The translations under genes and the position numbers were made by a program. Of a stretch of DNA of 36,965 nt, positions 782-32,625 are shown one piece after another. The stretch is from NCBI GenBank assembly GCA_040774925.1, contig JAXGTM010000002.1:1-36965 (forward strand), read 5' to 3'. Position 1 is the first letter of the stretch. Every line of letters starts with the position of its first letter. The notes below the pieces were generated by a model that worked only from the letters and a program-made list of their open reading frames with translations, searched no databases and was not told the DNA's origin. The stretch is from Atribacterota bacterium. GTDB taxonomy: Bacteria > Atribacterota > Phoenicimicrobiia > Phoenicimicrobiales > Stramentimicrobiaceae.

Positions 782-786
782 AAAGT

Positions 787-3937: not shown

Positions 3938-3938
3938 C

Positions 3939-4571: not shown

Positions 4572-4585
4572 AATAATTTTTCACC

Positions 4586-4894: not shown

Positions 4895-4935
4895 TTTCTA
4901 ACCTTTTAAAATACTTAAACTATGTGCTAAAAAAT

Positions 4936-5355: not shown

Positions 5356-5444
5356 CTAACTAAACCTCCGTTTTTTGAATTGATATAATTACAAAATTTA
5401 TTTTTGACAGAATTAATAAAACAAAATAGTTTATAACTAAAATT

Positions 5445-7424: not shown

Positions 7425-7439
7425 AAATTACTCCTTGGA

Positions 7440-8486: not shown

Positions 8487-8814
8487 TATCTTCCTTATTC
8501 AGATTGAAAATTCGTCTAATTATTTCTTCAAGAATGTAATCTAAATCTTCTTCAAATTTCTGCTGCATATCCTCTATTATTCTTTTATTCTCAGCTCTAA
8601 GTTCCTTAATTTCCTGTTTTGCTTCCTGTTCTATCTTCTTTTTAATACAATTGCTCTCATCTTCAATCTGTTTCTTATAATTTCTGGTAATTTCCAATTC
8701 CTCTTCTCTAAATTTGCTAGCCAGTTCACGCAATTGTTCTTTCCTGTTCTCATTAATTTTAATTGCCTGATAATCAAGGTTTATCAGGTTTTTAATTATT
8801 TCAATATCTTCCAA
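8479..8814 (-). CDS. Probable V/A-ATPase peripheral-stalk subunit (G/H-like coiled-coil protein)
   Basis: 111 aa, almost entirely charged heptad-like sequence (KEQLRELASKFREEELEITRNYKKQIEDE...). It is the first gene of the operon. TTG start with AAGGAG 7 nt upstream. Assignment rests on size, composition and position only. Confidence 0.55.
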   Translation of the reverse strand: MEDIEIIKNLINLDYQAIKINENRKEQLRELASKFREEELEITRNYKKQIEDESNCIKKKIEQEAKQEIKELRAENKRIIEDMQQKFEEDLDYILEEIIRRIFNLNKEDNG

Positions 8815-11390: not shown

Positions 11391-11506
11391 AACAGAGTAG
11401 TTTTATTTCTCATAAAAATATTTTTAGAAATTCTCTTATTACATATTGCAACCTTTTATCATTACTTTTTTTAATTTAGTTAAAGCTAAAGGTATTGGAG
11501 GAAATT

Positions 11507-12829: not shown

Positions 12830-12844
12830 AATGGAGGATTAAGA

Positions 12845-13858
12845 TTGATTATGGTAAATATGGTAAGTTTATTACCGTTTTTGGTATTAGTATTTCTTCT
12901 TGTTTTTGTTTTTTCAGTAATTTTCAGCTTTATCCCTTTAAGATTATGGATTGCTGCACTGGCAGCCGGTGTTAAGGTAGGCCTTATAAATTTAATTGGA
13001 ATGAGGCTACGACGGGTTGTTCCTTCTAAGGTAGTAGAGCCTTTAATTAAAGCCACTAAGGCTGGACTGGAAGATGTTAATGTTAACAAACTGGAAGGTC
13101 ATTATCTAGCCGGAGGAAATGTAGATAATGTCATTAATGCTCTTATAGCTGCACAGAGGGCAAATATAGACCTTGGATTTGAAAGAGCAGCTGCAATTGA
13201 CCTGGCGGGCAGAGAAGTTTTACAGGCAGTTCAGATGAGTGTAAATCCAAAAGTAATCGAAACGCCTGTGGTAGCAGCGGTAGCCATTAATGGTATTGAG
13301 GTAAAAGCAAAGGCACGAGTAACAGTGAGGGCTAATATTGAACGATTAGTCGGAGGAGCGGGTGAAGAAACTGTAATCGCGCGAGTTGGGGAAGGTATAG
13401 TCACTACTATCGGTTCAGCAAAAACTCATAAAGATGTTTTAGAAAATCCTGATGAGATATCAAAAACTATTCTTAAAAAAGGGCTTGACTCAGGAACTGC
13501 ATTCGAAATTTTATCTATTGATATTGCAGATGTAGATGTTGGAGAAAATATCGGTGCCCGATTACAGACCGATCAGGCTGAAGCTGATAAACGAATAGCA
13601 CAGGCTAAAGCTGAGGAGAGAAGAGCTATGGCTGCCGCACGTGAACAGGAAATGAAAGCATATGTTCAAGAAATGAGAGCAAAAGTAGTAGAGGCTGAAG
13701 CTGAAATCCCAAAAGCTATGGCCCAAGCACTCAAAGAGGGAAAGCTTGGTGTAATGGATTATTATAATCTGCAGAATATACAATCAGATACTCAGATGAG
13801 AAGTACAATCGCTAAAATGGGACCTGATAGTGAGAAGAAAGATCCCACTGGCCAATAA
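12845..13858 (+). CDS. floA: Flotillin-like protein FloA (SPFH/UPF0365 family)
   Basis: 337 aa with an N-terminal TM hairpin, then [29 protein letters not shown] core and Ala/Glu-rich coiled coil present ([27 protein letters not shown]). TTG start 7 nt after GGAGG. It follows nfeD, as in the Bacillus yqeZ-yqfA arrangement. Confidence 0.9.
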
Positions 13859-13917: not shown

Positions 13918-14454
13918 ATGGAATTTTTAATATTTGTATTTGTAATTGTGTCAATTCTGTCTTCTTTGAATGATTGGGCAAAGAAAAAAAGAGAGAAAAA
14001 AAGAGAAAAATTCTTTGACCCATGGTCATTTGAAAGAGATTCACAGATAGAAAGATTAAAGAAAATTGGTAAGAAAGAAGACAGCTTCAAGAAAACATCT
14101 GATAAAACGAAAACTTCATTGTCAAAAGATGAAATAGGTGATGGAGTTCTGGAAAAAGAAGAGTATTTCGTGGATCATCTTATTTACCCTAAAGAGAGAG
14201 AAGAATTTATCTCCCCACCTATTGCAGGTAAACAGAAGACAAAGAAAAAGATTGTTCAGTCAATCTTATCTAAGAAAGATGAGAAAGAGGATATATTATC
14301 ACCTCCCCTGCCAGATTCATTTAATCTAAGAAAAGAAGTGGCAAAGATACTTAGTAGCAGTCAACTTCCTCAGGCAATTTTAATTTCAGAAATACTGGGA
14401 CCCCCTAGAGCTTTCAAACCACATAAAATAAATAATTACAAAAAATTTAATTAG
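13918..14454 (+). CDS. Hypothetical membrane-anchored Lys/Glu-rich protein (third gene of the nfeD-floA cluster)
   Basis: 178 aa with one N-terminal TM helix (MEFLIFVFVIVSILSSL), a highly charged low-complexity middle, and the C-terminal motif LPQAILISEILGPPRAF. ATG start. A strong terminator follows. I recognise no family. Confidence 0.6.
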   Translation: MEFLIFVFVIVSILSSLNDWAKKKREKKREKFFDPWSFERDSQIERLKKIGKKEDSFKKTSDKTKTSLSKDEIGDGVLEKEEYFVDHLIYPKEREEFISPPIAGKQKTKKKIVQSILSKKDEKEDILSPPLPDSFNLRKEVAKILSSSQLPQAILISEILGPPRAFKPHKINNYKKFN

Positions 14455-15572: not shown

Positions 15573-15857
15573 TTTTTATTCCTTTCTCAATTTTTTTATT
15601 TCCTCCACTTTATTCAGTATAAATATTTTAGTAATCTGGGTCAAGCTTTCGAGCGAATATGGTAAAGTGATGAAAATTCGTTTATATGATTTATTTGCCT
15701 GAGAAAATTTTTCTATTATATATTATAATAATTATAGGTGCATAAATATTTTGCATATATATTTTAGAAATATTTTGTTATTTCTCTATTTCTATGTATA
15801 AACTATAAGAATTTGCTTTTAAAATACTTCAAAAATACAAAAGAAAGAAGTTATATT

Positions 15858-17540
15858 ATGAGTAATATAAAAAATAAAACAATTAACGTTGCCATTCTCC
15901 AGTTAAAAGCCTGGCCTTTTTCAAAACACGAAGAAAATAAAGAACATATTTTTCAATTTATTGAAAAGGCTTCTACTTTAAAACCAGATTTGATAGTATT
16001 GCCTGAATGTGTTTACCCCTGTTATTTTCTATCCCCCAGAATTATCCCTGATTACAAAGCATTAGGAATCCTTTGTGACAATTTTTTAACAGAAATAAAG
16101 AATTATGCAAAAAAATATGGCACTTTTTTAGCCCTTTGTTTACCGGAATATATTCCTGACAAAAATCTTCTGTATAATTCAGCTGTTCTGATTGATGATA
16201 AAGGAGAAGAGATTGGACGGACCAGAAAATCCTTTCTCTGGCATTTTGATAGTAAATGGTTTAAACCGGACTCTTATTATCCAGTTTTTGACACCAGAAT
16301 CGGTAAAATTGGAATGTTCATCTGTGCAGATGGTCGCCAACCGGAAATTGCCCGTTCTTTGTCCTTACAGGGTGCAGAGGTATTATTAGATTTTACCAAT
16401 CTTGTTACTACAGGGCTTGAGAAAAGGAATTGGACTAATCCACAAGTAGATTACATCATCCCTACCCGGGCATTAGAAAATAGAATTTGGATTGTGCTGG
16501 CAAATAAAGTGGGTTTTGAAGAAAACTCTATTCAGTGCTGTGGAAAAAGTGCATTCTTTTCACCTGATGGAGAAGCAGTGAAAATGGCTTCCTCTGACCA
16601 TGAAGAAATCCTGTTTAAAGAGATAGACCTCTCCCTGTCAAATCAGAAAAATATTAATAATGCTATTGACGTTTTTAAAGATAGAAGGCCTGAGTTGTAT
16701 GATTATATTACTTTGCCTACAAATAACCTTCCAGAAAAAGATATTTTCTTAAAGCCGTCTGATGCTAAAATTAAAAACCCATTTGCTGCAGTAATTCAAA
16801 TTAAGGGACAATCCAGTTCTTTAGAGAAAGATGATGATTTTTCTACCATTCTCTCCAGGATTGAATATTATTTTCATACTCTGGCAGAGCAGGATGTAGA
16901 TATACTCTCTTTTTCGCAGATAAATAATCTTTCCATTCAAAATAATACGATTATTTTAGATTTACTCAAAGAATTAACTAAAAATACTTCTCGGCTTTGT
17001 TCTTTTGTGTTAAAGGAAAATGAAGGCTCTGCTAATTATAAAACTATTTACCTCGTTCAATCTGGAAAGGTAATTGGTAGGTACAGTAAAACACATATAA
17101 AATTTCCTGAAAGAGATAATATTACTCCTGGAAAAGATGGTTTCCCGGTATATAAAACACAATTTGGCAATATAGGATTGCTCCTTGATTATGAAGGATT
17201 TTTTCCAGAAATTGCACGAATCCTGACTTTAAAAGGTGCGGATATTATTATCTGGGCAGGACAATTCGGTCTTGATGAACATATTAAGATCTGCCAAACC
17301 AGAAGTGCAGAAAACAAAATATTTACCATATGCCTTAACTCAATTGAGCAGAACGGTAACGGACATAGTGTGATAGTTTCACCATCAGGCCAGATTATAG
17401 CAGGTTGTTTAGAAAATCAGGAGATTGCCAGTGCCACCTCAATATCTATCTGCATGTCCCGAGATAAAGTAATTGTACCCAACACTAATGCCATTTTGAA
17501 CAGGCTACCGGAATCTTATTATCGATTGACTTCTTTATAA
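15858..17540 (+). CDS. Tandem carbon-nitrogen hydrolase (nitrilase superfamily) protein: active N-terminal domain plus degenerate C-terminal domain
   Basis: Domain 1 has the Glu-Lys-Cys triad context (LIVLPECV, GRTRKSFLW, GMFICADGRQPE; Cys codon 16323-16325). Domain 2 is collinear, but the same positions read ILSFSQIN, RYSKTHIK, GLLLDYEGFFPE. The ORF track opens at TTG 15813; the ATG at 15858 (MSNIKNKTINVAILQ) is preferred. Confidence 0.85.
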   Translation: MSNIKNKTINVAILQLKAWPFSKHEENKEHIFQFIEKASTLKPDLIVLPECVYPCYFLSPRIIPDYKALGILCDNFLTEIKNYAKKYGTFLALCLPEYIPDKNLLYNSAVLIDDKGEEIGRTRKSFLWHFDSKWFKPDSYYPVFDTRIGKIGMFICADGRQPEIARSLSLQGAEVLLDFTNLVTTGLEKRNWTNPQVDYIIPTRALENRIWIVLANKVGFEENSIQCCGKSAFFSPDGEAVKMASSDHEEILFKEIDLSLSNQKNINNAIDVFKDRRPELYDYITLPTNNLPEKDIFLKPSDAKIKNPFAAVIQIKGQSSSLEKDDDFSTILSRIEYYFHTLAEQDVDILSFSQINNLSIQNNTIILDLLKELTKNTSRLCSFVLKENEGSANYKTIYLVQSGKVIGRYSKTHIKFPERDNITPGKDGFPVYKTQFGNIGLLLDYEGFFPEIARILTLKGADIIIWAGQFGLDEHIKICQTRSAENKIFTICLNSIEQNGNGHSVIVSPSGQIIAGCLENQEIASATSISICMSRDKVIVPNTNAILNRLPESYYRLTSL

Positions 17541-18898: not shown

Positions 18899-19849
18899 TT
18901 ATACAATTCTTAATGCAAAGACCGGGCAATGTGGTATGCAATAGCCACAGGTCAGGCACAAATTATAATCAACATTAGCCTTACAGTTTCTTATAGACAG
19001 GGCATAGTTTGGGCACACATCGACACAAGTTCCGCATCCCTCACAAAAACTTGAAACAAATAGTTTCTTTCTGGTAAAACTCTCTTGAAATAATTCTTCC
19101 TGGGTAACTTTTTGGTCTTCAAATATTTTTAGGTTTATTTCTAACTCCCTTTGGTTCACCATCCCTATTGAGATAGATTGTATTTCCTCAATATTCCTGA
19201 CAAAACTAATCGCCGTTACTAATTTAGAAAAGAGATAGCCACCTGCCAGGACTTTCATTGCATAGATCCCTTTACTATTTTTATATGCTTTTTTTATTGC
19301 CCCAACCATATCTTCTGGTTGTCCGCCTACGATTCCCAATCCCAGCAGATTAATAATAGGAAAAATAATATCAATTTCTTCTCTTTTAGCAGACTCTTCA
19401 ACTACTTCAACGGCATGTGCAGAAACACCAATAGCTCTTATCAAGCCTTTCTTTTTCAGATCTTTCAGTGCTGATAATGCACCTGCTCTTTTTTGAAAAA
19501 TTAATTTATCTTCCCTTGCTGCATGCAGATGAAAAATATCAATATAATTCCTGTTCAACTCTCGACAGGCTTCTACAACTGCCTCTTCCATCTCCTGATA
19601 AGTAATGGCATGGGATTTACTGGAAATAACTACATCTCCTTGATAACCAGCAAGAGCCTTCTTAATGTAGGGGTAGGTCTGATAAGCCTGTGCAGTGTCT
19701 AGAAAATTAATACCGGAATCCAGCCCTTTCCTTATTATGTCGGCACCTTCATCGAGCGGCATATTTATTTGTAACGGTCCCATAGGTAGAGTCCCAAAGC
19801 ATAGTTCACTAACCCTTATTCCCGTATTACCCAGAACATTATATTTCAT
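18899..19849 (-). CDS. Aldo/keto reductase fused to a C-terminal 2x[4Fe-4S] ferredoxin domain
   Basis: The N-terminal ~260 aa are AKR-like (GNTGIRVSELCFGT, INFLDTAQAY, IDIFHLH). The C-terminus carries two CxxCxxCxxxCP clusters (CEGCGTCVDVCP, CLTCGYCIPHCP). ATG start with GGGAGGAG upstream. Confidence 0.85.
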   Translation of the reverse strand: MKYNVLGNTGIRVSELCFGTLPMGPLQINMPLDEGADIIRKGLDSGINFLDTAQAYQTYPYIKKALAGYQGDVVISSKSHAITYQEMEEAVVEACRELNRNYIDIFHLHAAREDKLIFQKRAGALSALKDLKKKGLIRAIGVSAHAVEVVEESAKREEIDIIFPIINLLGLGIVGGQPEDMVGAIKKAYKNSKGIYAMKVLAGGYLFSKLVTAISFVRNIEEIQSISIGMVNQRELEINLKIFEDQKVTQEELFQESFTRKKLFVSSFCEGCGTCVDVCPNYALSIRNCKANVDYNLCLTCGYCIPHCPVFALRIV

Positions 19850-20166: not shown

Positions 20167-20853
20167 TTATCCATTATTAATACTGTCCAGATAGGTACAG
20201 TAAGCAGAGCCGGTTTCGGTAATAACTATTTCTTCTTCCTGTCTTCGAATAAATTTTAAAAACTTCAATATTTCTAGAATAGCCTCACCTTCTTTTTCAT
20301 CAATAGCCATTTCTCGAACAGTTTCCTGAAAAGATTTTTCTGTAACATAATGTTTTTCATAAATATCATAGAGCACATTTTTACTGTTTGGAACTAAAAG
20401 ATTATCAGCAAGAAGAAATAACCATTTCACATTTTCTTTTTTCTCTTTTTTTAACCGCTCCAGTATCCTGGAAATGTCTTCTTCTCTAAGTTTTTCCTCT
20501 TCTTTCTCCAGATTTATCTTATCAATCCAGGCCATAACTGTTCCAGAAATTATCTCCTGAAATCTCCTCTCATCTTTAAATACATCTGGAATTGTATGAT
20601 GCTTTTGCAGTGATACGGGAGCCATCAGAAGGTTGCTCTTGACCTTTTTATCTAAAAAATGAAAAATGTTTTCTTGATACAAGAAGATAGCACAAAACGC
20701 GGAAACAAAGAATAGAGCAATCTCTGAATTAGTCAACTCTACCCATCCCGCTTTATCAAAGGGCCAGAAAAGTACAGCTAATAACATGGTAAGCAGGCAT
20801 AAAATTCCATAAGGCAGGATAGTCAATAATATTTTGCGTATATGGTTTTCCAT
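20167..20853 (-). CDS. Hypothetical membrane protein (2 TM N-terminus, charged cytoplasmic C-terminal domain)
   Basis: The ORF track opens at TTG 20862; the in-frame ATG at 20853 (MENHIRK...) is preferred. There are two hydrophobic helices, then a Glu/Lys-rich segment and an alpha-helical tail. I recognise no family. Confidence 0.55.
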   Translation of the reverse strand: MENHIRKILLTILPYGILCLLTMLLAVLFWPFDKAGWVELTNSEIALFFVSAFCAIFLYQENIFHFLDKKVKSNLLMAPVSLQKHHTIPDVFKDERRFQEIISGTVMAWIDKINLEKEEEKLREEDISRILERLKKEKKENVKWLFLLADNLLVPNSKNVLYDIYEKHYVTEKSFQETVREMAIDEKEGEAILEILKFLKFIRRQEEEIVITETGSAYCTYLDSINNG

Positions 20854-20894
20854 TTTTCTCAAACCATTAATTTTTATTTTTCTTAAATACAGAA

Positions 20895-21617: not shown

Positions 21618-21694
<77 letters not shown>

Positions 21695-21723: not shown

Positions 21724-22263
21724 TCATAACATCGGCAATGAAACCACAGATTTGATTCTAACAGCTAAAAAAGTTGCTGTTATTACTTTTAAACAATCAC
21801 CAGGTAAAAAGGGTACAATCCCTACCATGACAGCATCTTTTATTCCAATTTTGGCAAATAATATTAGTTGAGTTACTCCTGTAAGATATATAATTATCAT
21901 TCCCAAAATTCCTATTGAGAGGTATACATATACATTCATATTTTTTATGTTTTCAATTAACATACCAACTATATATGAAGATAGAACAAAGCCGATTAAA
22001 AACCCTCCGGTTGGACCCAACAATACCCCAGGACCAGCTCTAAACCCTGAAAATACTGGCAATCCGACTGTTCCGACAAATATATATATTAACTGGCTGA
22101 AAGCACCTAATTTGCCACCTAAAACCATTCCAGATAAAATAGTAAACATATTTTGCATACTTATTGGAACCATACCGATGGGAATTGTAACAAAAGCACC
22201 AACGGCAGTTAGTGCCGCAAAAAGAGAGACAAGTATCATCTGTCTGGTATTAATTTTTTTCAT
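21724..22263 (-). CDS. bioY: Biotin transporter BioY (ECF S-component)
   Basis: FAALTAVGAFVTIPIGMVPISMQNMFTILSGMVLGGKLG...GLPVFSG is the characteristic BioY N-terminal block. About 6 TM. The ORF track opens at TTG 22269; the ATG at 22263 is preferred. Confidence 0.9.
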   Translation of the reverse strand: MKKINTRQMILVSLFAALTAVGAFVTIPIGMVPISMQNMFTILSGMVLGGKLGAFSQLIYIFVGTVGLPVFSGFRAGPGVLLGPTGGFLIGFVLSSYIVGMLIENIKNMNVYVYLSIGILGMIIIYLTGVTQLILFAKIGIKDAVMVGIVPFLPGDCLKVITATFLAVRIKSVVSLPML

Positions 22264-22322
22264 TTGCAAGTCTTATATTTTCGCTTTCTTAAATATTTTC
22301 TTACGAAATTTTTTCCTTATAC

Positions 22323-23570
22323 TTATAATTTTTTATGTATGTAGCTGGATAATTTTCCTAGACAATGCACATAGCTTCCATATTCGTTGTCATACCAACC
22401 AAAAATGGTTAAATGGGTAATAGGGATATTTATCATCTTGGAGCTGTTTCCCATTCCTATCTCCCGGAGCATTTCAGGATCAAAACTGATAAAACTCGTT
22501 CTTGTATGAGTAGCATGTCCCTCTATGGTAACAGCGGCAAGCTTTCCTTTTAAATCAGACGATACATTCTGATTAGTGCTGAAACATAAGAGCTCTTTTT
22601 GTGGTCCTTGTGCAGCTTCCTGATATATATCATTTATAAGCTCTCTGTTTACAACAGAATTTCCCTTTTTATCTAATCTGCTGTGAAAGGTTAGATTCAA
22701 TATAATTAGTGAGACTGTATCAGTAGGGATTCGAACCGAATCTGCCATAAAACCAATTCTTTTTACTTCCGGTAATACTTTTTCCAGTGCACTTGCAGCT
22801 CCTGTAGTAGAAAGAATTATATTATTAAAGACCATCCTATTTTTTCTCAGATCTGTGTCACCAGCACCGGGCAGGGAATCGAGCACTCTTTGACTGTTAG
22901 TTGCAGCATGTATGGTAGACAATGATGCTGTTAAAATATTTCTGGTCTCTTCTCTCTCAAGCAAAGGCTTAACCATATGTGCCAGAGCTGTAGTTGTACA
23001 TGAAGCAGCAGAAACAATTCTATGTTTATCCTGAATAAAGGAAAAATGGTTTATACCATAAATAAGAGTGGTACAATCTTCCGGTAATTTTTTCGACTTA
23101 TCTTTTATTTTGAAAGGCGCACTATTAATAACTTTCTCAGCTCCAGCAAGAATATGTCCCCTAAGAGAACCTCTGTCATTATCTTCAAAAACACCAGGAT
23201 CGTTAAAAGCGCCTGTGGAATCAACAACTAATTTAACCCCGTATTCCTTCCAGTTGATATTTTTTGGATTCCTATCTTTGCAGAGAATTTTTACAGGTTT
23301 TCCAAATATTTCTAAAAGATTCTTCTCTTCATCAATAATTTTTATACCATTTTGTGCTTTTATTCCAAATAAGAATTTTTCCATAGGACCATAAGTCGAA
23401 TCAGACCCAATAAGATTAGCAATGTCTGTGAGACTCTTTCCTACAGAACGGCCAGTATTTATAACAAAGCTATCAAAATAATTTTCATGCAATTGATACC
23501 ATAGGGTTAATTTCCCAATTCTTCCCAATCCGTTAATGCCCAAACAACTTTTTTTATCTTTTAAATCCAA
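22323..23570 (-). CDS. Atypically long glyceraldehyde-3-phosphate-dehydrogenase-family oxidoreductase
   Basis: 415 aa. Rossmann motif GINGLGRIGKL. Catalytic SAASCTTTALAHMVKPL (Cys191 codon 22998-23000). TIHAATNSQRVLD (catalytic His plus Thr), DLRKNR, STTGAASALEKVLPE, SVRIPT and the C-terminal WYDNEYG are all present. There are several insertions relative to ~335-aa GAPDHs. The TTG start directly abuts the TGA of the upstream gene. Confidence 0.85.
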   Translation of the reverse strand: MDLKDKKSCLGINGLGRIGKLTLWYQLHENYFDSFVINTGRSVGKSLTDIANLIGSDSTYGPMEKFLFGIKAQNGIKIIDEEKNLLEIFGKPVKILCKDRNPKNINWKEYGVKLVVDSTGAFNDPGVFEDNDRGSLRGHILAGAEKVINSAPFKIKDKSKKLPEDCTTLIYGINHFSFIQDKHRIVSAASCTTTALAHMVKPLLEREETRNILTASLSTIHAATNSQRVLDSLPGAGDTDLRKNRMVFNNIILSTTGAASALEKVLPEVKRIGFMADSVRIPTDTVSLIILNLTFHSRLDKKGNSVVNRELINDIYQEAAQGPQKELLCFSTNQNVSSDLKGKLAAVTIEGHATHTRTSFISFDPEMLREIGMGNSSKMINIPITHLTIFGWYDNEYGSYVHCLGKLSSYIHKKL

Positions 23571-26500
23571 TCAAAGTGCCCCTCTTTCATTAAAGTAGGT
23601 GATTTGCTCCAGACCAATAGCATGATGACCCTTATAGATATTCCCAAGATAGGCATCTATAGCAATTTTATCACCTGTTTTAAATTCATTATTATTAATA
23701 AAACATCTTTTTTCCTTTTCTAATACTGTTAAATGCTTACAATTTACTATACAAATCTTCCCAAGCTGTGCTGCTGTAACAGCAGCATGAGATGTAACTC
23801 CTCCGCGTGCAGTCAAAAGTCCATCACAATCAAATATCATTTCTATATCATCGGGCACGGTATCTGGTCTGATTAATATCTTATTATCCTCAGGGTATCT
23901 TTCTGTAAGCATATTTATATCATCCAGATTAAAAGCTACCCGCCCATTTATTGCCCCTCTTCCTATACCAATTCCCATTCCAACAAGATAATTGAGGATT
24001 TCAGGGCTGGTAAAAATAGGGGTCTTCTCTTCTTCTTTTAACACATAGGGCCTGGTCTGTAATATATGTAAATCCTTTTTATGTTTAGATTTAAAGGTGA
24101 ATTCGATCTCTTGGTGCTCATATCCTTTTTCATAGATTAACTCCCTTGCTAATTTTAACAACCTCTGATAGATCTGGGGAAATTGTACTTCCAGAGATTC
24201 TCCTTTAAGGTGTGGGAATTTTTCATTTTGAAATTCAGATATTGGCAGGGTATAGACCAGTCCGGAAACAATATCCTCTCCCTGACTGCAAATAGTAAAA
24301 TCACCGTACAAGGTAACCTCAGGACTTTTTTCAAATGGAATTTTAGTAAAAATAACTCCTGCACCTGATCTGGTATTAATATTTCCTAAAACCATCTCCT
24401 GTACTATTACAGCTGTTCCCCATTCTTCGGCAATCTGAAGTTTTTTGCGAAATATCTGAGCCCTATCGTTGTACCAGGATTGAAATACAAACAATATAGC
24501 CTGAATCAATTGCTTGAAAGGATCTTCTTCTAATACAATCCCATGTTTTAACAACAATGTTTTGTAAGCAAAAGCAATCTCTTTCATCTGTTCTTTGCTA
24601 AAGTCTTTCTTTTCTTTAACCTGGTGAATTTTCTTATGCTTAAGAATAAGTTTATCAAATTCATCACGCTCAATCCCATTAGCCATTCCCCAGTTTTGTA
24701 ATAATCTTCTATATGAGTCCCATGCTGCCCAACCATATTTTGAAACTTTGCTTAAGCTTTCAGCAATCTCATCATTCATTCCTATGTTTAAAATGGAATC
24801 CATCGCTCCCGGCATAGGAATAACCGTACCAGAGCGAACTGCTAACAATAGTGGATTTTTAGGATCACCAAGTTTTTTCTTTGTAATTCTTTCTAATTCC
24901 ACAAGTTTCGCTCTAATCATCCCCAAAATGGCCTGATACATTTCCGGAAATTCCATGATGGCTTTTCTGTCTCTAAACCATTCTGTTGTTAAGACAAATC
25001 CTGGCGGTATGGGAAATTTGTAAGAGTACAATTTTTTTAAATAGTATGCTTTAGCTCCCAAAAATATCTGATTATCCACTTTGGGATTGGGTTTATGCAA
25101 AGAAGTTGATAATAATCTTGGATTATAATTTAACAGCATATGTATAACATCTGGCTTTAACCTTCCCAGCATATTCCTCAGTGTACTTAAGATTTTGGAA
25201 ACATAGTTATCCAGACTTTGCACTAAGAAGGACGATACTATCATCTCTCTGTAAAATTCTTCTGATCTTCTGTAAATAATGTGTTCACGGGAAACATTGT
25301 TTTTATTGCTGCTCTTTAATTTCTGCTCTATGATAGTCTTCAGTGAAGGATTGAATGGGAGTATGTAATAATTATCAATTATTTCTTTTATATTAAGAGT
25401 AATAAAAGAAAAAATATTTACAAACTGTTCCATTGAAAAAGTAGTGGTTTTAAAACTATAGTTTAGCATTTCTAAATGTGAATTAAAATTCTCATTGATA
25501 ATGCCATTTAGACTTAGTCCCTCTTTAAAAAGATCAAGAATTTTGGCTGCACTATGAAAGCCGTCAATAGTCATATAATCAAGATTTCTCTGGCTAATCA
25601 GCTTATGTATAAGATAATCGACAAGCTTCTCTAAACGCAATATTAATCCCATGGCTTCAAATTTTTTTTCATAGTATTGACCATACATGGATGGAATTCC
25701 AGATGCTATATGGCGTTTGAAATATAAACTCTCCTGGGCTTCACTTCTAGCAGGCTCCAGAATAATTTTTTTCAAATCAGAAATCATGCTGTAGACCAGT
25801 TTTATGGCAATATCATAATTGTTTTTTTTAATAAATCTTTTTAATTTATCTATTTCTTTGATAGAAAAAAAGTTTGATTGCAATAAATCGTGTGATATAA
25901 ACTTGTAATCAAGAGTGTATTTATGTTTTAAAAGTTGATATAATTCGATTAAATAGGCAACACGCTGGGTGACATCTGTTCTAACATTACTGATATGCGC
26001 TAAAGACTTTTGTATTTCATTTATGTCTTCTTCCAGAATATCTTCGGGACTCATTTTTAATCTATCACAAAGTGAATTAACAGTATGATGTATCTCATTA
26101 AACCATTCTTCTGAAGCAGGCAACTCATTTTGAACATCTCTTGGAAGGTATTTTAGAAGAGGCTGGCGGTTTTTATCATGCCAATAAAAAAAGATTTTTC
26201 TAATTAATTCAATCTGTGAGTTATTACTCTCTGTATGCACCTGTTTCCTTAAAAAATGAATCAGTCTGTCTTCACCATAGGAGAGTTTGTCAATTTCTGT
26301 GGATATTTCTCTAATCTTCCCTTCTGCACCAATGGTACTGAAATAGACCGGGAAAAGATTAAGCAACTGCTTTATTAAAACATAATTTGATCTGATATCA
26401 CTATTGAGCAGCTGGCTAATATCTCTTTGAAAAAGATCTTCATCACGTATAAGCACTCCACCTACTTTCAAATTAACAATTAAAGCTGATATTAATTTGC

Positions 26501-27686
26501 TGCTATATTTCGGTGAACATTTAATCAGGTTGAGCCAGACTCTAATCATTTTTAAATGATTATTATCAGTTTGAACCTGCCATTCGTCATTAATTTTCAT
26601 TTCGCTGGGATAGATAAACCCGAATTTAATGAGATATTCAATAAATATATCTATATATATCTGGTCTTCTGTTTGAAATATCTTCTTCCCTAAACTCAAT
26701 ATACATTCCAGTATTTTTTCGATACTTTCCTCTTTTAATCTATTGAAAAGAGTGAAAGTATTGTTAAGAAAATTATCTAAAGATAATACTTTTAGTTCAT
26801 TATTGGTAAACTTTGAATACAGATGAGATAATTCTACTAACAAGAGATCTCTAGAACCCATCATTACCGTTTCCAATAAATAGTAAAGAAAATAAACGCT
26901 TTCCTGAACCGGGGCATCTTTTTCTATTAAATCTGTTAATTTATCCAGGAATTCTTTAAAACCATCTATGCCCGTCAAATCTTTCCAGGTTTGAGCAGCA
27001 GATAACTCTTTTTGTATTTTGTTAATCAGTTCGATTTTTCTATTGGAAATATTAATTATACTGTCAGGATATCTATCAGAAAAATGTTTATCCTTCATCT
27101 GACACCATTCCTGAAAATTCAATTGCTTTTGCCACATATCAATATTTTCACTCAAAGAGTACTCGAGAAGTTTTTTTATTCTTATTGAACAGTCATTTTG
27201 TTTAATCAGCTCTATGGGGAACTTTTTAAGCAGGCCGGAGGAGTGCACCATAATATCAGAATTATTTAATAAAACATTCTCTAAAATAGTTACTATATCT
27301 TCACAATAGATATTGAGCTCTGTATTTATATCATCACTTTGTGTCAATTCTTGAACAAATTCTAACAGTGTGTTTAATAGACGCCACCTGCTCTGCCTGT
27401 TTAGATCTCTATTTAACTGTTCGCCAAATAACCACAGAATAGCTTTTAAAGCCCTGCTTGCTTCCACATGCGCTTTGTAAAACCAGATATCATTCAGAGC
27501 TATTTCTCTGAGGCCATCATGTATCTTCTTTATTTTGTAAGGTTTTTGATATATTTTTATTAAAAGATTTTCCATCCTCTGGTTTATGCCAAAATGAGAT
27601 GAAGATATATTCAAAAGCCATTTATTTTCTTCTGATAACTCTTTTTCAAGAGTTATTTGTATTTCACTTTTTTGAGGTATTTCCAT
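23571..27686 (-). CDS. Large PPDK-related dikinase-like protein: unknown ~868-aa helical N-terminal region, ATP-grasp nucleotide-binding domain and phosphohistidine swivel domain, no PEP/pyruvate domain
   Basis: Uninterrupted 1371-aa ORF with an ATG start 11 nt after the birA stop. The last ~503 aa (nt ~23574-25082) are collinear with the N-terminal two-thirds of pyruvate,phosphate dikinase, including RGGVTSHAAV (His1300 codon 23787-23789). The protein ends ~70 aa after that His. Confidence 0.88.
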   Translation of the reverse strand: MEIPQKSEIQITLEKELSEENKWLLNISSSHFGINQRMENLLIKIYQKPYKIKKIHDGLREIALNDIWFYKAHVEASRALKAILWLFGEQLNRDLNRQSRWRLLNTLLEFVQELTQSDDINTELNIYCEDIVTILENVLLNNSDIMVHSSGLLKKFPIELIKQNDCSIRIKKLLEYSLSENIDMWQKQLNFQEWCQMKDKHFSDRYPDSIINISNRKIELINKIQKELSAAQTWKDLTGIDGFKEFLDKLTDLIEKDAPVQESVYFLYYLLETVMMGSRDLLLVELSHLYSKFTNNELKVLSLDNFLNNTFTLFNRLKEESIEKILECILSLGKKIFQTEDQIYIDIFIEYLIKFGFIYPSEMKINDEWQVQTDNNHLKMIRVWLNLIKCSPKYSSKLISALIVNLKVGGVLIRDEDLFQRDISQLLNSDIRSNYVLIKQLLNLFPVYFSTIGAEGKIREISTEIDKLSYGEDRLIHFLRKQVHTESNNSQIELIRKIFFYWHDKNRQPLLKYLPRDVQNELPASEEWFNEIHHTVNSLCDRLKMSPEDILEEDINEIQKSLAHISNVRTDVTQRVAYLIELYQLLKHKYTLDYKFISHDLLQSNFFSIKEIDKLKRFIKKNNYDIAIKLVYSMISDLKKIILEPARSEAQESLYFKRHIASGIPSMYGQYYEKKFEAMGLILRLEKLVDYLIHKLISQRNLDYMTIDGFHSAAKILDLFKEGLSLNGIINENFNSHLEMLNYSFKTTTFSMEQFVNIFSFITLNIKEIIDNYYILPFNPSLKTIIEQKLKSSNKNNVSREHIIYRRSEEFYREMIVSSFLVQSLDNYVSKILSTLRNMLGRLKPDVIHMLLNYNPRLLSTSLHKPNPKVDNQIFLGAKAYYLKKLYSYKFPIPPGFVLTTEWFRDRKAIMEFPEMYQAILGMIRAKLVELERITKKKLGDPKNPLLLAVRSGTVIPMPGAMDSILNIGMNDEIAESLSKVSKYGWAAWDSYRRLLQNWGMANGIERDEFDKLILKHKKIHQVKEKKDFSKEQMKEIAFAYKTLLLKHGIVLEEDPFKQLIQAILFVFQSWYNDRAQIFRKKLQIAEEWGTAVIVQEMVLGNINTRSGAGVIFTKIPFEKSPEVTLYGDFTICSQGEDIVSGLVYTLPISEFQNEKFPHLKGESLEVQFPQIYQRLLKLARELIYEKGYEHQEIEFTFKSKHKKDLHILQTRPYVLKEEEKTPIFTSPEILNYLVGMGIGIGRGAINGRVAFNLDDINMLTERYPEDNKILIRPDTVPDDIEMIFDCDGLLTARGGVTSHAAVTAAQLGKICIVNCKHLTVLEKEKRCFINNNEFKTGDKIAIDAYLGNIYKGHHAIGLEQITYFNERGAL

Positions 27687-27697
27687 TTTCTCTTGTT

Positions 27698-28714
27698 TTA
27701 AATCCTCCCCTGCTCTTCCTTACCTGTTAATGTAGAGATAGTCCCTGATATTATCTCTTTGATCTTTTCATCTTTCGTCTTAATAATCAGAGCCCCTTTT
27801 TCGTTTATATCGATGGCTCTTCCTGTAATAATTTTATTTCCAGAGTTAACCTCAACATACTTTCCTATGATATTGTTATAGGATTTCCATTCTTCCAATA
27901 TTTCAGAAAAACCCTTTTCTTTAAAAACCCAGTAAGACTTCTCCAATTCACTACATAAATAATTTAATAATTTCAGACGTGAAACTGAATGGCCGACAGT
28001 TTCCTTTAAAGAAATAGAATCGTTACTGATGTGTCGGGGTAATTGAAAAGAACAATTATTTACATTTATCCCTATTCCAACTATAACCCATCTAATGTTT
28101 CTTCCTTCTGTGCTCATCTCTGTAAGTATACCACATACTTTTCTGCCACTTATTAAAATATCATTGGGCCATTTTATTTGCAATTCTATTTTAGGTAATA
28201 GTTTCTCAATTGCCTTCACCACTGCCACAGCTGTCATGAGGGTAATAAAAGACATATGAGAGGGGTCAAGTTCTGGGTAGAGTACAACTGAAAGCCATAT
28301 GCCCCCGGATGGGGAAAACCATTTTTTTCCTGATCTTCCTTTACCTACACTCTGCTTCTCAGCAATAACGATAGTACCTTCCGGTATTTTATTGGTATTT
28401 TCACGTAACAGTTCGCTTGCGATACTGTTGGTAGAGGTCAATTCGGTAAAATAAAAAATGTTTTTCCCAATATATCTCGTAGTTAAGTTTCTTTTAATTT
28501 CAAAAGGCAGCAAGATATCCGGACGATTGATTATACGATAACCACCCTGCCCATCAATACAAAATTCGTATCCCAATTCTTTTAATTGAAGTATCTGTTT
28601 TTTAATGTCTTGAATAGATGTTAAAAGTATTTCACTCAATTTTTCTTCTTTTATAAAAGAATCTTCTGACAGATGATCTATTATGGGGAAATTATTTTCA
28701 AGACCATTTTTCAT
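27698..28714 (-). CDS. birA: Bifunctional biotin--[acetyl-CoA-carboxylase] ligase / biotin operon repressor BirA
   Basis: N-terminal winged-HTH (LSEILLTSIQDIKKQILQLKELGYEFCIDGQGGYRI). Catalytic core with the biotin-binding loop QSVGKGRSGKKWFSPSGG and KWPNDILISGRKVCGILTE. C-terminal SH3-like tail. The ORF opens at GTG 28717; the ATG at 28714 is adjacent and preferred. Confidence 0.92.
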   Translation of the reverse strand: MKNGLENNFPIIDHLSEDSFIKEEKLSEILLTSIQDIKKQILQLKELGYEFCIDGQGGYRIINRPDILLPFEIKRNLTTRYIGKNIFYFTELTSTNSIASELLRENTNKIPEGTIVIAEKQSVGKGRSGKKWFSPSGGIWLSVVLYPELDPSHMSFITLMTAVAVVKAIEKLLPKIELQIKWPNDILISGRKVCGILTEMSTEGRNIRWVIVGIGINVNNCSFQLPRHISNDSISLKETVGHSVSRLKLLNYLCSELEKSYWVFKEKGFSEILEEWKSYNNIIGKYVEVNSGNKIITGRAIDINEKGALIIKTKDEKIKEIISGTISTLTGKEEQGRI

Positions 28715-28759
28715 CACTTTATTACATAATCCTCAGCACTTGCAATATTAAGAAGATAT

Positions 28760-29380
28760 TTATTCTATTTCTTTCAGTTTGTTTATAATCATTTCCGTTA
28801 CTAATTCAAGATGCTCAGCCGTTTTTACAAAATCGAGACAATCGATTGGAATAGACAAAATAGGGCAGAGAGAAAAATCCTTTACCCATTTACTGTATAA
28901 TCTGTTAAGCTGTTTCAGATAGTCTCTGGAAATACTCTTTTCATAATCTCTACCACGAAGAGCTATTCTTTGCTCTAGGGTCTCTATGGATGCTTCCAGA
29001 TACACAATAAGGTCAGGCGGAGAAAGATAGCTTATCATATTGTAAAATAACTCTCTGTAGCTTTGGTAATCTCGTTTTTCCATCAAACCTTGTTCATATA
29101 AATTTCTGGCAAAGATATCAACATCTTCATAAATACTGCGATCCTGAACAACTGAATTGGGATCCTGTAATATTCTTTGGTGGTGTTGAAAACGTTTAGA
29201 AAGAAAAAATACCTGTAAGTGAAAACTCCACTTTGACATATCTTTGTAAAAGTCTTCTAAATAGGGATTATTTTCTACCACTTCATAAAATGCTTTCCAG
29301 CCTAATTTTTCACTCAGAACTCTTGTCAGGCTTGATTTACCGCTTCCGATATTTCCAGATATAATAATGAATTTTTTCAT
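28760..29380 (-). CDS. Deoxynucleoside kinase (dAK/dGK/dCK family), second of a tandem pair
   Basis: P-loop IIISGNIGSGKSSL, plus YEVVENNPYLEDFY, QDRSIYED and RIALRGRDYE (LID). The ORF track opens at TTG 29434, overlapping the upstream gene by 23 nt. The ATG at 29380 (MKKFIIISG...) gives the usual short N-terminus and is preferred. Confidence 0.85.
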   Translation of the reverse strand: MKKFIIISGNIGSGKSSLTRVLSEKLGWKAFYEVVENNPYLEDFYKDMSKWSFHLQVFFLSKRFQHHQRILQDPNSVVQDRSIYEDVDIFARNLYEQGLMEKRDYQSYRELFYNMISYLSPPDLIVYLEASIETLEQRIALRGRDYEKSISRDYLKQLNRLYSKWVKDFSLCPILSIPIDCLDFVKTAEHLELVTEMIINKLKEIE

Positions 29381-29411
29381 TTTTTTCTGGTCATCTACTC
29401 TTTCCAATTCC

Positions 29412-30038
29412 CTATTCTCTATCTTTCTGCTCAATATTTTGACATATTATATTAAAGTCTTTACGGTTATCTACAAAATCCATTCCATCAGTATTAATTA
29501 CGAGGAGTTTGGTTCTGGTAAAATTACTCTGATCACTGAAATAATTTTCATAATGATTATTAAGATTTTCCATATATTGGTAAGAAATGTTCTGTTCAAA
29601 TGAACGAGCTCTTTGTCTTATCCTCTTCATCAATAGTTCTGTACTAGATTTTAAATAAATAATTATATCAGGGGACGGGATATCACGACTTATTATTCCA
29701 TACAGATGTTCATACATTTCTAATTCATTACCGGAAAGTGTCAGGTGGGCAAAAATTCGGTCTTTAGCAAACATATAATCCGAAAATGACAATTGTCTGA
29801 AAAGGTCCTGTTGAGCAGCCTTTACCTGCTGGTCATATCGACTTAATAAAAAGAAAATCTGAGTTCGAAAAGCATATTCTGCGATATTGTCATAAAAATG
29901 TGTTAAGAAAGGGTTTTCTTCAACTACTTCTAACAGAGCCCTTGCATTATATCTCTTACTTAGTTGGAGAACCAGGCTGGTTTTCCCTGCTCCGATAGCT
30001 CCTTCAACAGCAATATACTTACTTTGAAATGAATACAT
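29412..30038 (-). CDS. Deoxynucleoside kinase (dAK/dGK/dCK family), first of a tandem pair
   Basis: P-loop IAVEGAIGAGKTSL, plus LEVVEENPFLTHFY, SDYMFAKD and RIRQRARSFE (LID). ATG start. Confidence 0.88.
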   Translation of the reverse strand: MYSFQSKYIAVEGAIGAGKTSLVLQLSKRYNARALLEVVEENPFLTHFYDNIAEYAFRTQIFFLLSRYDQQVKAAQQDLFRQLSFSDYMFAKDRIFAHLTLSGNELEMYEHLYGIISRDIPSPDIIIYLKSSTELLMKRIRQRARSFEQNISYQYMENLNNHYENYFSDQSNFTRTKLLVINTDGMDFVDNRKDFNIICQNIEQKDRE

Positions 30039-30275: not shown

Positions 30276-31895
30276 CTATTTAACATTAACTGTTTCTATT
30301 CTATCCCTTAATCTCCCCAGAGCTTTAAATCCGTTATAAACAACGAAACTTGCCAGCACCAGAAGCAGTATAGAAATTGACCCTAGAAGTATATTCCCTT
30401 TACCAAAATTGGTAAAGACCAGGTTGATAAGGGCAGCTACTGTAACCAGCATCATAAAAGCCATTGGGTAGTAGGTTACTTTGATGTTTTTGCCCAGATG
30501 TGCCAGCCATGCTGTTGCACTTAGTAAAGCTAATCCTGCCAGCAGCTGATTTGCCGAGCCAAAAATAGGCCAGATTGCTGACCACTGTCCGCTCATTGCT
30601 AAAGCGCCTCCGGCAACAACAGTAATAATAGTACCTGCATATCTGTTAGAGAGAGAAGGCATTTTTTCAGCAGTTAATTCTTCAAAACAATATCTACCTA
30701 AACGTGTAGCCGTATCCAGAGAGGTTATTAAAAACGCAGAAACAGTCAGAGAACCAAAAACAACACCTGTCTGCTCAGGGACACCAAAGCCGGCCATAAA
30801 CTTACTTAAACCATGTGCAAAAACTCCTACTGCACCGCCCCATTCAGCTAAGCCAGCCTTCATTCCTTCCTGGGTCAGAATAGCAGCTGCACCTAAAGAG
30901 ATCACTGCCAGAACACCTTCAATAAGCATGGCGCCATAGCCAACCAATCTGGCATCTTTTTCATTATCCAGCTGTTTGGCTGTAGTACCTGATGCAACCA
31001 TGGAATGGAAACCAGAAACTGCACCACATGCTATCGTTACAAACAGCATGGGGAATAAGAATCCTACCCCTGTTTTAAAACTAGTAAAGGTTGGGTAAAC
31101 TAATACTGGTCTAACTATAAAAACACCAACCACTCCACCTATTAAAGCAGCATAAAGTAAAAATGATGATAAATAATCTCTGGGTTGTAATAACATCCAC
31201 ACAGGTAATGTTGAAGCTAAAAAGATATATATAATTAAAAACCAGGTCCAGGTAATTTGGTTAAAGTATAAAAAGGGGTAATTAAGACCTATCCAGATAG
31301 CAACCATTAGCAACACTATTCCTATAAGGGTGACCAAAGGTAAGCTCATATTGGCTCGATACATAGCAAATCCCATGGCAACTGCAATAAAGATCATTAG
31401 AACACTTGTTGTAGCAACTGAGGCATTAGCTGCAAATGCCTGTGCAGTTAAAATTGCAAAAACGGCAACAACCAGTACAAGTGTTAGCCATGCAAATAAT
31501 AAAAACCAGGTACGGGCTTGTTTACCCACATATTGACCAATAATCTCACCAACAGATTTTCCCTTATGACGGGAAGAGGTAAGTAAGCCAAAATAGTCAT
31601 GAACACCTCCAACAAAAACAGAACCTAGCACGATCCATAAAAAGCAGGGTAGCCATCCGAACACGATTGCTGCAATAGGACCTGTTATTGGTCCAGCACC
31701 TGCTATTGATGCAAAATGGTGACCTAAGAGTACTGGCGCCTTGGCTGGAACATAGTCTACTCCATCTGTCATGGCATGAGCTGGAGTCTTATTTTTTCCA
31801 TCTACTCCAGCTAATTTTTCTAAAACATCTCCATAAATTTTATATGCAATCAAAAAAACAATTATTGCTAAAAGTAGTATAGTTAAAAGATTCAT
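30276..31895 (-). CDS. cstA: Carbon starvation protein CstA (peptide/pyruvate transporter family)
   Basis: 539-aa polytopic protein. IAYKIYG...DGVDYVPAKAPVLLGHHFASIAGAGPITGPI is the signature CstA N-terminal block. AAAGGAGG Shine-Dalgarno sequence upstream of the ATG. Confidence 0.9.
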   Translation of the reverse strand: MNLLTILLLAIIVFLIAYKIYGDVLEKLAGVDGKNKTPAHAMTDGVDYVPAKAPVLLGHHFASIAGAGPITGPIAAIVFGWLPCFLWIVLGSVFVGGVHDYFGLLTSSRHKGKSVGEIIGQYVGKQARTWFLLFAWLTLVLVVAVFAILTAQAFAANASVATTSVLMIFIAVAMGFAMYRANMSLPLVTLIGIVLLMVAIWIGLNYPFLYFNQITWTWFLIIYIFLASTLPVWMLLQPRDYLSSFLLYAALIGGVVGVFIVRPVLVYPTFTSFKTGVGFLFPMLFVTIACGAVSGFHSMVASGTTAKQLDNEKDARLVGYGAMLIEGVLAVISLGAAAILTQEGMKAGLAEWGGAVGVFAHGLSKFMAGFGVPEQTGVVFGSLTVSAFLITSLDTATRLGRYCFEELTAEKMPSLSNRYAGTIITVVAGGALAMSGQWSAIWPIFGSANQLLAGLALLSATAWLAHLGKNIKVTYYPMAFMMLVTVAALINLVFTNFGKGNILLGSISILLLVLASFVVYNGFKALGRLRDRIETVNVK

Positions 31896-32115: not shown

Positions 32116-32625
32116 CTAAGGTTGAAAACTGTACACCTGTGCAATCTCCTTACCCTTGGCATTACAAAAAACAGCTTTGTTTTTAATATCAATCAATAAC
32201 AAACGTATATCACACCAACCTTTAATACCAAATAGGAATGTTTTGCTGTATTTGAACCTCTGAGAAGCTTGAATAGCTTCATCAGAAAAACCATTTTCAC
32301 CAATAATAATTCCATTAATAGTATGTGACATGACCTCTAAAGAAGGATTTGTTAATTCTAAAGCTGCCTTAACAATAAATTGAGAAAAATCGTTGATATC
32401 TCCTACTTCTACATATCTATCGAATCCGTTCACCAATATGATTTCTCTTTCCTGATAATGATCAATACGAATATTTTTGGTAAGTACACTGCGGTAATGC
32501 TCTGTAACAGAAAAAGCATAGATATCAACTTTACTATTCAGAATATGCTTGTTTATTTCTACATTATAATGCAACTGATATCTTTTTGACAATTCTTTAA
32601 GATATTCTGACAATTTTAGTTGCAT
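32116..32625 (-). CDS. Hypothetical protein (no recognisable family)
   Basis: 169-aa ORF with an ATG start and mixed alpha/beta-looking, non-repetitive composition. It is flanked by long AT-rich spacers. Coding status is inferred from ORF length in a stop-rich AT-rich background. Confidence 0.5.
   Translation of the reverse strand: MQLKLSEYLKELSKRYQLHYNVEINKHILNSKVDIYAFSVTEHYRSVLTKNIRIDHYQEREIILVNGFDRYVEVGDINDFSQFIVKAALELTNPSLEVMSHTINGIIIGENGFSDEAIQASQRFKYSKTFLFGIKGWCDIRLLLIDIKNKAVFCNAKGKEIAQVYSFQP

Follow-up and report, generated by a model that had tools for sequence, protein, structure and literature searches.

A conserved gene pair encoding a dikinase-like protein and a long GAPDH paralogue

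The DNA analysed here (positions 1 to 36,965 of contig JAXGTM010000002.1 from an Atribacterota bacterium, referred to below as the window) carries on its minus strand a 1371-aa open reading frame (ORF) for a large protein, BIG, followed directly by a 415-aa ORF, gapL. BIG combines a novel N-terminal domain (aa 1–870) with an ATP-grasp domain and a phosphohistidine swivel domain (His1300) of the pyruvate, phosphate dikinase (PPDK) type, and the product of gapL belongs to the glyceraldehyde-3-phosphate dehydrogenase (GAPDH) family. Dikinase-type and GAPDH-family identities had been given to the two proteins in an earlier note on this DNA, and the Pfam and NCBIfam matches agree with them. The main features of the locus are the following.

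23571–27686, minus strand: BIG, the large gene (1371 aa), with full-length homologues of ~1360 aa in many phyla and Pfam, NCBIfam and PDB matches only at aa 871–1354
25077–27686, minus strand: N-terminal domain of BIG (aa 1–870), a predicted all-alpha solenoid of no known family (no sequence-family match; AlphaFold2 (AF2) model; Foldseek)
25629–25736, minus strand: most conserved N-terminal motif (aa 651–686, YFKRHIASGIPSMYGQYYEKKFEAMGLILRLE; translation checked), a predicted beta-hairpin and candidate acceptor or ligand site
24051–25076, minus strand: PPDK-type ATP-grasp domain of BIG (aa 871–1212; TIGR01828, PPDK alignment and Foldseek)
23625–23990, minus strand: phosphohistidine swivel domain of BIG (aa 1233–1354; PF00391), with His1300 of GGVTSHAAV at 23787–23789 (translation checked)
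23568–23584, minus strand: junction, with GAGGGG at 23579–23584, an 8-nt spacer, TGA at 23571–23573 and TTG at 23568–23570 (sequence read)
22323–23570, minus strand: gapL (415 aa), with Cys191 at 22998–23000, His221 at 22908–22910 and N38-T-G-R41, the Asp32-equivalent motif, at 23448–23459 (translations checked)

At the junction, the TGA stop of BIG abuts the TTG start of gapL with no nucleotide between them (minus strand: ...GAA AGA GGG GCA CTT TGA/TTG GAT TTA...; the text before TGA TTG GAT is GAAAGAGGGGCACTT). The abutting codons and the GAGGGG element had both been claimed previously, and both are read directly in the sequence at agreeing coordinates. The TTG reads as the true start codon of gapL, because its homologues align from residue 1 and share the same leader of ~9 residues before LGINGLGRIGK. 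Besides the window, gapL begins with TTG in the six Atribacterota loci that carry it (L004, L005, and L008–L011). TTG and GTG starts are common among the long ORFs of the window in a mechanical ORF listing.

The spacing between BIG and gapL is 0 nt in L004, from −14 to +26 nt in other Atribacterota, and from −1 to +252 nt outside this phylum, where one locus reaches 714 nt. The earlier note had read the junction as translational coupling with a roughly fixed stoichiometry. This holds for the Atribacterota lineage and does not carry over to other lineages, where the spacing varies and many loci, those of Bacteroidota excepted, have their own AGGAGG-type site before gapL. Stop and start codons 0 nt apart are commonplace in operons and unremarkable by themselves; translational coupling is a lineage-specific detail of the Atribacterota, and what is conserved is the gene pair. 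Co-transcription of BIG and gapL is well supported, and promoter and terminator scans returned scores at the level of shuffled sequence, which makes them uninformative.

Domains of the two proteins

Pfam matches to BIG, namely PPDK_N and the mobile domain of PEP-utilizers (PF00391, at aa 1266–1347), are confined to aa 871–1354. The ATP-grasp domain matches positions 13–334 of the PPDK model TIGR01828 and residues 18–307 of C. symbiosum PPDK, while the swivel domain aligns with residues 390–509 of the same enzyme. A phmmer comparison with C. symbiosum PPDK gave E = 2e-66, and a Foldseek comparison of the C-terminal half with PPDK structures gave E = 1e-22 at ~30% identity. The PPDK alignment keeps the Lys of GAK, VRSG, PMPGAMD, QEMVLGN (QEMVxGN) and GGVTSHAAV, and T1298-S1299-H1300 is conserved in every relative compared. 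The EIEFTF...ILQTR segment falls outside the printed alignment; it is present in the translation and is invariant in the family.

No match to the phosphoenolpyruvate (PEP)/pyruvate TIM barrel (PF02896) was found in BIG with either Pfam or NCBIfam, and the protein ends 17 residues past the swivel domain, at aa 1371. The whole protein scores 337.6 bits against TIGR01828, below the cut-off of 843.45, and 244.1 bits against an NF004531-like short-PPDK model of 534 positions, below the cut-off of 456. BIG is half a PPDK and not a PPDK, with the residues of the ATP-to-His half-reaction intact and no known acceptor domain. Like PPDK (EC 2.7.9.1), it has ATP-grasp and phosphohistidine swivel domains and keeps TSH, RSG, EFTF and LQTR; unlike PPDK, it lacks the PEP/pyruvate barrel, carries an unrelated 870-aa helical N-terminus and scores far below the family cut-off. 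The previous label of "dikinase" can be made more precise in this way. In public annotation, the large protein is a "pyruvate, orthophosphate dikinase" and the small one a "glyceraldehyde-3-phosphate dehydrogenase"; as labels for the two genes, "PPDK" and "GAPDH" are mis-annotations.

An AF2 model of aa 172–1371 (pLDDT 80, pTM 0.68), in which part of the ATP-grasp domain is poorly modelled, fits PPDK best with the His domain facing the nucleotide domain (~7 Å root-mean-square deviation, versus 14–15 Å for the other conformer). This model gives no indication of where the phosphate goes after His. Neither protein matched the anti-phage defence models of PADLOC, and a reading of the pair as a defence system was ruled out.

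The N-terminal domain (aa 1–870) has no Pfam, NCBIfam or PDB sequence match. Its AF2 model, built from a 47-sequence alignment (pLDDT 86, pTM 0.78), consists of ~45 helices and a single beta-hairpin at aa 651–672. The tip of the hairpin is of low confidence, and the hairpin is no better ordered when modelled beside the kinase half (pLDDT 68–69 in the model of aa 172–1371). When the domain was compared with the PDB by Foldseek, no enzyme fold was recognised; the matches were all generic alpha-solenoids, CRM1 and karyopherins among them (E ~6e-4, TM-score ~0.18).

Approximately 22 polar residues of this domain are invariant in 14 sequences that include the most distant subfamilies (23–25% identity). 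They comprise D415, R459, D466, D473, R480, K481, H484, K589, Y590, Q754, R813 and D826, together with E652, Y655, K657, H659, S666, Y671, E673, K675, R684 and E686 on aa 651–686. Many of them fall on the hairpin motif KRHIAxGIPSMYGxYxExKFEAxG, which makes aa 651–686 a candidate acceptor or ligand site. As an alternative, the earlier note had suggested the N-terminal region as a scaffold for the dehydrogenase. Its predicted fold, an all-alpha solenoid, lends this some support, and the invariant polar core counts against a passive scaffold, since such a pattern would fit a ligand-binding or catalytic site better. An exhaustive HMMER search with the N-terminal domain against 1.84 billion representatives returned 391 clusters. 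Near-full-length proteins among the matches listed range from 1350 to 1540 aa, shorter entries being likely fragments, and two divergent members that were scanned both carry PPDK domains.

The product of gapL has the Pfam domains Gp_dh_N and Gp_dh_C and, at 415 aa, is ~80 residues longer than the usual 330–340 aa. It scores 284.7 bits against TIGR01534 (type I GAPDH), below the cut-off of 367.2, and its alignment with classical GAPDH contains eight insertions. Family-specific motifs include SAPFKIKDK and (E)GHxTHTRTGF, the latter followed by a 25-residue insert, and H355-x-R357-T358 are invariant residues specific to the gapL family. Cys191, His221, Thr224, Arg242, Arg245, Thr256-Gly257, Arg280 and WYDNE are invariant in 57 of 57 gapL members, as are Ser190 and Thr192. 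Cys191 and His221 correspond to the classical catalytic pair Cys149/His176; Thr224, Arg242 and Arg280 to Thr179, Arg195 and Arg231 of the C3-phosphate (Ps) site; and Ser190, Thr192 and Thr256-Gly257 to Ser148, Thr150 and Thr208-Gly209 of the inorganic phosphate (Pi) site. With these residues in place, gapL probably encodes a working phosphorylating triose-phosphate dehydrogenase.

In GAPDH, Asp32 selects NAD over NADP. The equivalent residue in gapL (position 39) is never acidic: throughout the 57 members it is V, T, A, I or M, and an invariant Gly-Arg comes next. This loss of Asp32, taken with the Gly-Arg that follows, is the one feature suggesting that the enzyme can probably use NADP(H).

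The gapL proteins share 53–87% identity with one another across phyla and 24–37% with classical GAPDHs. A classical gap gene lies beside gapL in at least six loci (L014, L047, L071, L081, L082 and L089). The view that gapL is not a plain glycolytic gap is borne out by this coexistence and by the low identity to classical GAPDH: gapL forms, on sequence grounds, a distinct clade of ~415-aa proteins. No second gap gene and no pgk gene was found among the scanned ORFs of at least 100 aa in the 37-kb window. Like type I GAPDH (GapA), gapL has the GAPDH fold, domain order, catalytic Cys/His, both phosphate sites and WYDNE; unlike it, gapL has ~80 extra residues, the SAPFKIKDK and HTRTGF motifs and a replaced Asp32, and is tied to a dikinase gene. 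It belongs to the GAPDH superfamily and, judged by score, length and Asp32, falls outside the curated type I family. An ArsJ-type GAPDH was ruled out: the score of 144 bits is below the cut-off of 450, and an ArsJ gene is absent. The upstream "classical" gap of L014 (6930–7928), a metagenome-assembled genome (MAG) labelled CSSED10-310, is itself aberrant, with CTGN for CTTN after the catalytic Cys, VWER for IND at the Asp32 position and 24% identity to gapL.

Distribution and neighbourhood across genomes

At least 545 loci were found when one genome per species was scanned with the N-terminal domain, and the best 80 of them were used; together with three loci from exact-protein look-up, 83 were tallied, a few of them duplicating one contig (e.g., L002/L013). 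Taxon labels are those of the depositors. Full-length homologues of BIG (42–84% identity) occur in MAGs labelled Atribacterota, Geobacteraceae, other Deltaproteobacteria, Clostridia, Chloroflexota and Dehalococcoidia, and the closest relatives of the BIG of the window are from Atribacterota. The best 80 loci add Syntrophomonadaceae, Oscillospiraceae, Bacteroidales, Lentimicrobium, Cloacimonadota, Calditrichales, Fibrobacter and candidate division CSSED10-310, and Acidobacteria and Elusimicrobia labels are found among the gapL homologues.

Seventy-five of the 83 loci, with about ten phylum labels, were informative. In 61 of these, gapL lies directly downstream of BIG on the same strand, and in nine only a classical gap gene of ~335 aa lies within the flank, mostly just upstream. 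A GAPDH-family neighbour of any kind is thus present in 70 loci and absent from five. Clustering of the neighbouring ORFs identified the GAPDH family as the sole neighbour common across phyla (66 loci, versus 11 for the next family, an Atribacterota-specific deoxynucleoside kinase, dNK). In the reverse direction, three of three long paralogues selected from other phyla, in a 2.97-Mb genome, an Acidobacteria MAG and an Elusimicrobia MAG, directly follow a BIG homologue. Pairwise divergence of BIG correlates with that of gapL (r = 0.94 over 57 pairs, uncontrolled for shared phylogeny). BIG and gapL are inherited together as a conserved two-gene module. Conservation of the two genes as neighbours, which the earlier note had proposed to look for, is therefore found in most loci, while the same stop/start junction is confined to close Atribacterota.

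These counts bear on an alternative in which an ordinary glycolytic gap gene lies by chance beside a PPDK that is mis-annotated or split, its PEP/pyruvate domain being the product of a distant gene. Such a reading would agree with the public annotations. It is nearly excluded: a pairing in 70 of 75 loci with otherwise unrelated flanks and about ten phylum labels cannot be chance, the score of BIG lies far below the PPDK cut-off, and the extra 870-aa domain is strongly conserved. In addition, locus L003 has a complete, separate PPDK on the same contig. The split-PPDK variant was ruled out, as no separate PF02896 gene recurs near the BIG loci.

Five loci have the order classical gap-BIG-gapL. 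In one locus, L089, a divergent BIG member of 1426 aa is part of a canonical glycolytic operon, gap-BIG-gapL-pgk-tpi-secG. The same-strand run in L089 (602–14475) reads rpoN-hpf-ptsN(EIIA-Ntr)-rapZ-EIIA(Man)-GNAT-gap-BIG-gapL-pgk-tpi-secG and is followed by ATP sulfurylase and APS reductase genes, tying the module to a nitrogen-PTS/RapZ regulatory cluster in a probable sulfate reducer. Another divergent BIG member, in L090, begins 21 nt after a classical gap gene. The most distant BIG subfamilies (P0365 and P0350; 1449–1462 aa) have no GAPDH neighbour. A distant BIG in L087/L088 (6001–10389) has a two-component system with CbbQ/VWA genes on one side and a NiFe hydrogenase on the other, and L092/L093 carry the same most distant subfamily, with transaldolase and inositol-1-phosphate synthase genes nearby in L092.

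One Bacteroidales clade (L045, L063, L068, L070, L076, L078, L079 and L080) has lost gapL, and lepA (EF4) follows BIG instead; this lepA is incidental. In L068, L078, L079 and L080, and also in L062, a classical gap gene lies divergently upstream of BIG, an arrangement that suggests a shared promoter region. No other neighbour conserved across phyla was found: pgk and tpi occur in L089 only, and birA, bioY and dNK in Atribacterota only.

The triose-phosphate part of glycolysis is held to be fully known, yet at least 545 loci, counted in one genome per species, encode a ~1360-aa protein of unassigned function. A GAPDH paralogue travels with this protein, and the pair suggests that central sugar metabolism has a reaction or control point not described before. 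Among its anaerobic carriers are Atribacterota, Geobacteraceae, Syntrophomonadaceae, Cloacimonadota and Bacteroidales, groups that matter for carbon cycling in the subsurface, in digesters and in the gut. Strain NaphS2 (L033) is a carrier in culture.

Possible functions of the module

A search of the literature for the pairing and for a "phosphoglycerate dikinase" returned no description, with only VadK and rifampin phosphotransferase (RPH) being relevant; BIG-gapL is an undescribed module. The function favoured here, tentatively and at somewhat less than an even chance, lies at the GAPDH step, with the module acting on its metabolites. BIG would interconvert 3-phosphoglycerate (3-PG) and 1,3-bisphosphoglycerate (1,3-BPG), coupled to ATP + Pi <-> AMP + pyrophosphate (PPi), as a dikinase alternative to phosphoglycerate kinase (PGK). 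In this scheme, the ATP-grasp domain would load His1300 from ATP (plus Pi), giving AMP + PPi, and the swivel domain would carry the phosphate to an acceptor on the novel helical domain rather than to a TIM-barrel-bound pyruvate. The proposed acceptor is the carboxylate of 3-PG. The product of gapL, probably NADP(H)-capable, would reduce or produce 1,3-BPG, possibly in a physical complex with BIG. Of these elements, we infer the acceptor, the direction, the cofactor and any complex. A fuller version is more doubtful still: BIG as a "3-phosphoglycerate, phosphate dikinase" complexed with a dedicated NADP-type GAPDH, forming in many anaerobes a PPi/AMP-linked alternative to PGK for both glycolysis and gluconeogenesis, with an acceptor site in a catalytic domain whose fold is new.

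Calculated from textbook standard free energies, 3-PG + ATP + Pi -> 1,3-BPG + AMP + PPi comes to ~ +4 kJ/mol, versus ~ +19 kJ/mol for the PGK reaction in the same direction. The dikinase step should be feasible in both directions. It would ease gluconeogenesis or, in reverse, conserve the energy of PPi, as PPDK does relative to pyruvate kinase.

The 3-PG dikinase scheme is essentially the idea of the earlier note, "activate by phosphorylation, then reduce", made specific. That idea fits the intact GAPDH active site, the loss of Asp32, the intact ATP and His residues and the position of BIG-gapL between gap and pgk in L089. Metabolism has several pairs of a kinase and a phosphorylating aldehyde dehydrogenase, namely PGK/GAPDH, aspartokinase/ASD, ProB/ProA and ArgB/ArgC. 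BIG-gapL resembles them in having adjacent genes for phosphoryl transfer and for a Cys-dependent phosphorylating dehydrogenase. The kinases of these pairs differ from BIG in transferring the gamma-phosphate directly and yielding ADP, whereas BIG would use a phosphohistidine and yield AMP + PPi, and may form an acyl phosphate. There is also a parallel in B. subtilis, where GapB is a gluconeogenic, NADP-dependent paralogue that coexists with GapA. In this respect, gapL compares with GapB as a second paralogue beside a classical NAD-type gap.

Several observations weigh against the 3-PG dikinase scheme. No 3-PG-binding fold or motif was recognised in BIG, and its N-terminal domain is predicted to be an alpha-solenoid, a fold that usually serves protein–protein contacts. 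In L089 the operon also contains pgk, which means that PGK is not replaced by the module there. The use of NADP by gapL is suggested by a single change, the loss of Asp32. The most distant subfamilies (P0365 and P0350) keep the invariant core without a GAPDH gene beside them, and the core chemistry may for that reason not be specific to 3-PG.

Chief among the rivals is a regulatory kinase, which seems possible and on the unlikely side. BIG would autophosphorylate on His1300, its solenoid would dock a GAPDH (gapL or classical), and it would then phosphorylate that enzyme or control flux through it. The predicted solenoid, typical of protein-binding scaffolds, would suit such a role, as would the match to the short 534-position PPDK model (244 bits) and the fact that BIG adjoins either a long or a classical GAPDH gene; the invariant H355-x-R357-T358 of gapL could be the site of modification. 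A precedent exists in M. tuberculosis, where VadK (Rv1127c) is a PPDK shortened to its ATP-grasp and His domains; it undergoes autophosphorylation on His and was recovered together with enzymes of the methylcitrate cycle by co-precipitation (bioRxiv 10.1101/2025.10.30.685616). BIG is like VadK in having these two PPDK domains and in being tied to central-metabolic enzymes rather than to pyruvate, and it conserves the residues for an ATP- and Mg-dependent autophosphorylation on His. It is unlike VadK, which is ~490 aa long, actinobacterial, without an extra domain and linked to the methylcitrate cycle, in having an 870-aa domain and a link to GAPDH. Against a regulatory role, the substrates and mechanism of VadK are themselves not established. 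A regulator would also not obviously need a dedicated GAPDH paralogue that diverges together with it (r = 0.94), the invariant charged core of the N-terminal domain looks more like a small-molecule site, and the distant subfamilies keep this core in the absence of a GAPDH neighbour.

A two-step pathway on a different substrate is improbable. Here the dikinase would phosphorylate another phosphorylated or anionic acid or metabolite, and gapL would be retuned to the corresponding pair of aldehyde and acyl phosphate, a C4 or C5 sugar-acid phosphate being one example. Some GAPDH paralogues, Epd and the ArsJ-associated GAPDH among them, are known to have taken on other roles. In line with a changed substrate, gapL scores below the type I cut-off, and some of its eight insertions lie, in the sequence, near active-site segments (SAPFKIKDK and the S-loop). 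The distant subfamilies without GAPDH likewise suggest a wider range of acceptors. Against this stand the invariance in gapL of every C3-phosphate and inorganic-phosphate residue for glyceraldehyde 3-phosphate and 1,3-BPG, the classical gap that takes the adjacent position where gapL is missing, and the gap-pgk-tpi operon context of L089.

The three-part logic of BIG has a counterpart in RPH, in which a C-terminal His swivel domain shuttles phosphate between an ATP-grasp domain and a substrate-binding domain (PMC4844700). RPH and the PEP-synthase-like small-molecule dikinases (PigC/RedH and others) also give weak NCBIfam matches to BIG. They differ from it in domain order and in an unrelated substrate domain, the similarity amounts to 25–35 bits, and none is paired with a dehydrogenase; in RPH, moreover, the second acceptor is water and not Pi. 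BIG would work like members of the PEP-utilising/dikinase superfamily, and it falls outside both PPDK and the VadK type.

If BIG is a 3-PG/1,3-BPG dikinase, it would represent a second PPDK-like, PPi-linked reaction in central metabolism, and would alter what metabolic models estimate for ATP yield and gluconeogenesis in these organisms, which are energy-limited. If it is a regulator, VadK would gain a second example beside it of a core enzyme controlled by a kinase derived from PPDK.

Other genes of the window

Two genes of biotin metabolism flank the pair in the window.

27698–28717, minus strand: birA (biotin ligase/repressor), 11 nt upstream of BIG; its cluster recurs in nine loci, all Atribacterota
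21724–22269, minus strand: bioY (biotin transporter), 53 nt downstream of gapL; its cluster recurs in seven loci, all Atribacterota

birA is probably on the same transcript as BIG. Upstream of birA are tandem deoxynucleoside-kinase genes (28760–30038, minus strand; 208 and 224 aa, with a 23-nt overlap), and the order dNK-dNK-birA-BIG-gapL-bioY recurs in Atribacterota loci only, BIG-gapL being inserted between birA and bioY. In L006, bioY directly follows BIG without gapL, and in L011 birA is found downstream instead. The sole Rfam match in the window is a tRNA-Pro (CGG) at 21618–21694 (minus strand), between bioY and a PfpI-family gene.

Four ORFs of 111–231 aa (20167–20862, 13918–14454, 32116–32625 and 8479–8814) have no Pfam family at E <= 1e-5; the first, which was the only one of the four also scanned against NCBIfam, had no match there either. 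A V/A-type ATPase operon occupies 155–8814 (minus strand), with subunits D, B, A, E, c (K), I and C/AC39 and small ORFs. NfeD, a membrane protease-like protein, and the flotillin FloA are encoded by a gene pair at 11495–13858 (plus strand), and a 575-aa protein with two carbon-nitrogen hydrolase (nitrilase-superfamily) stretches is encoded at 15813–17540 (plus strand). The CstA-family transporter at 30276–31895 (minus strand; 539 aa) may be a short form, its best stretch covering positions 3–357 of the 560 of the Pfam model. Finally, a 316-aa fusion at 18899–19849 (minus strand) joins an aldo/keto reductase (aa 15–219) to a C-terminal 2x[4Fe-4S] ferredoxin domain.

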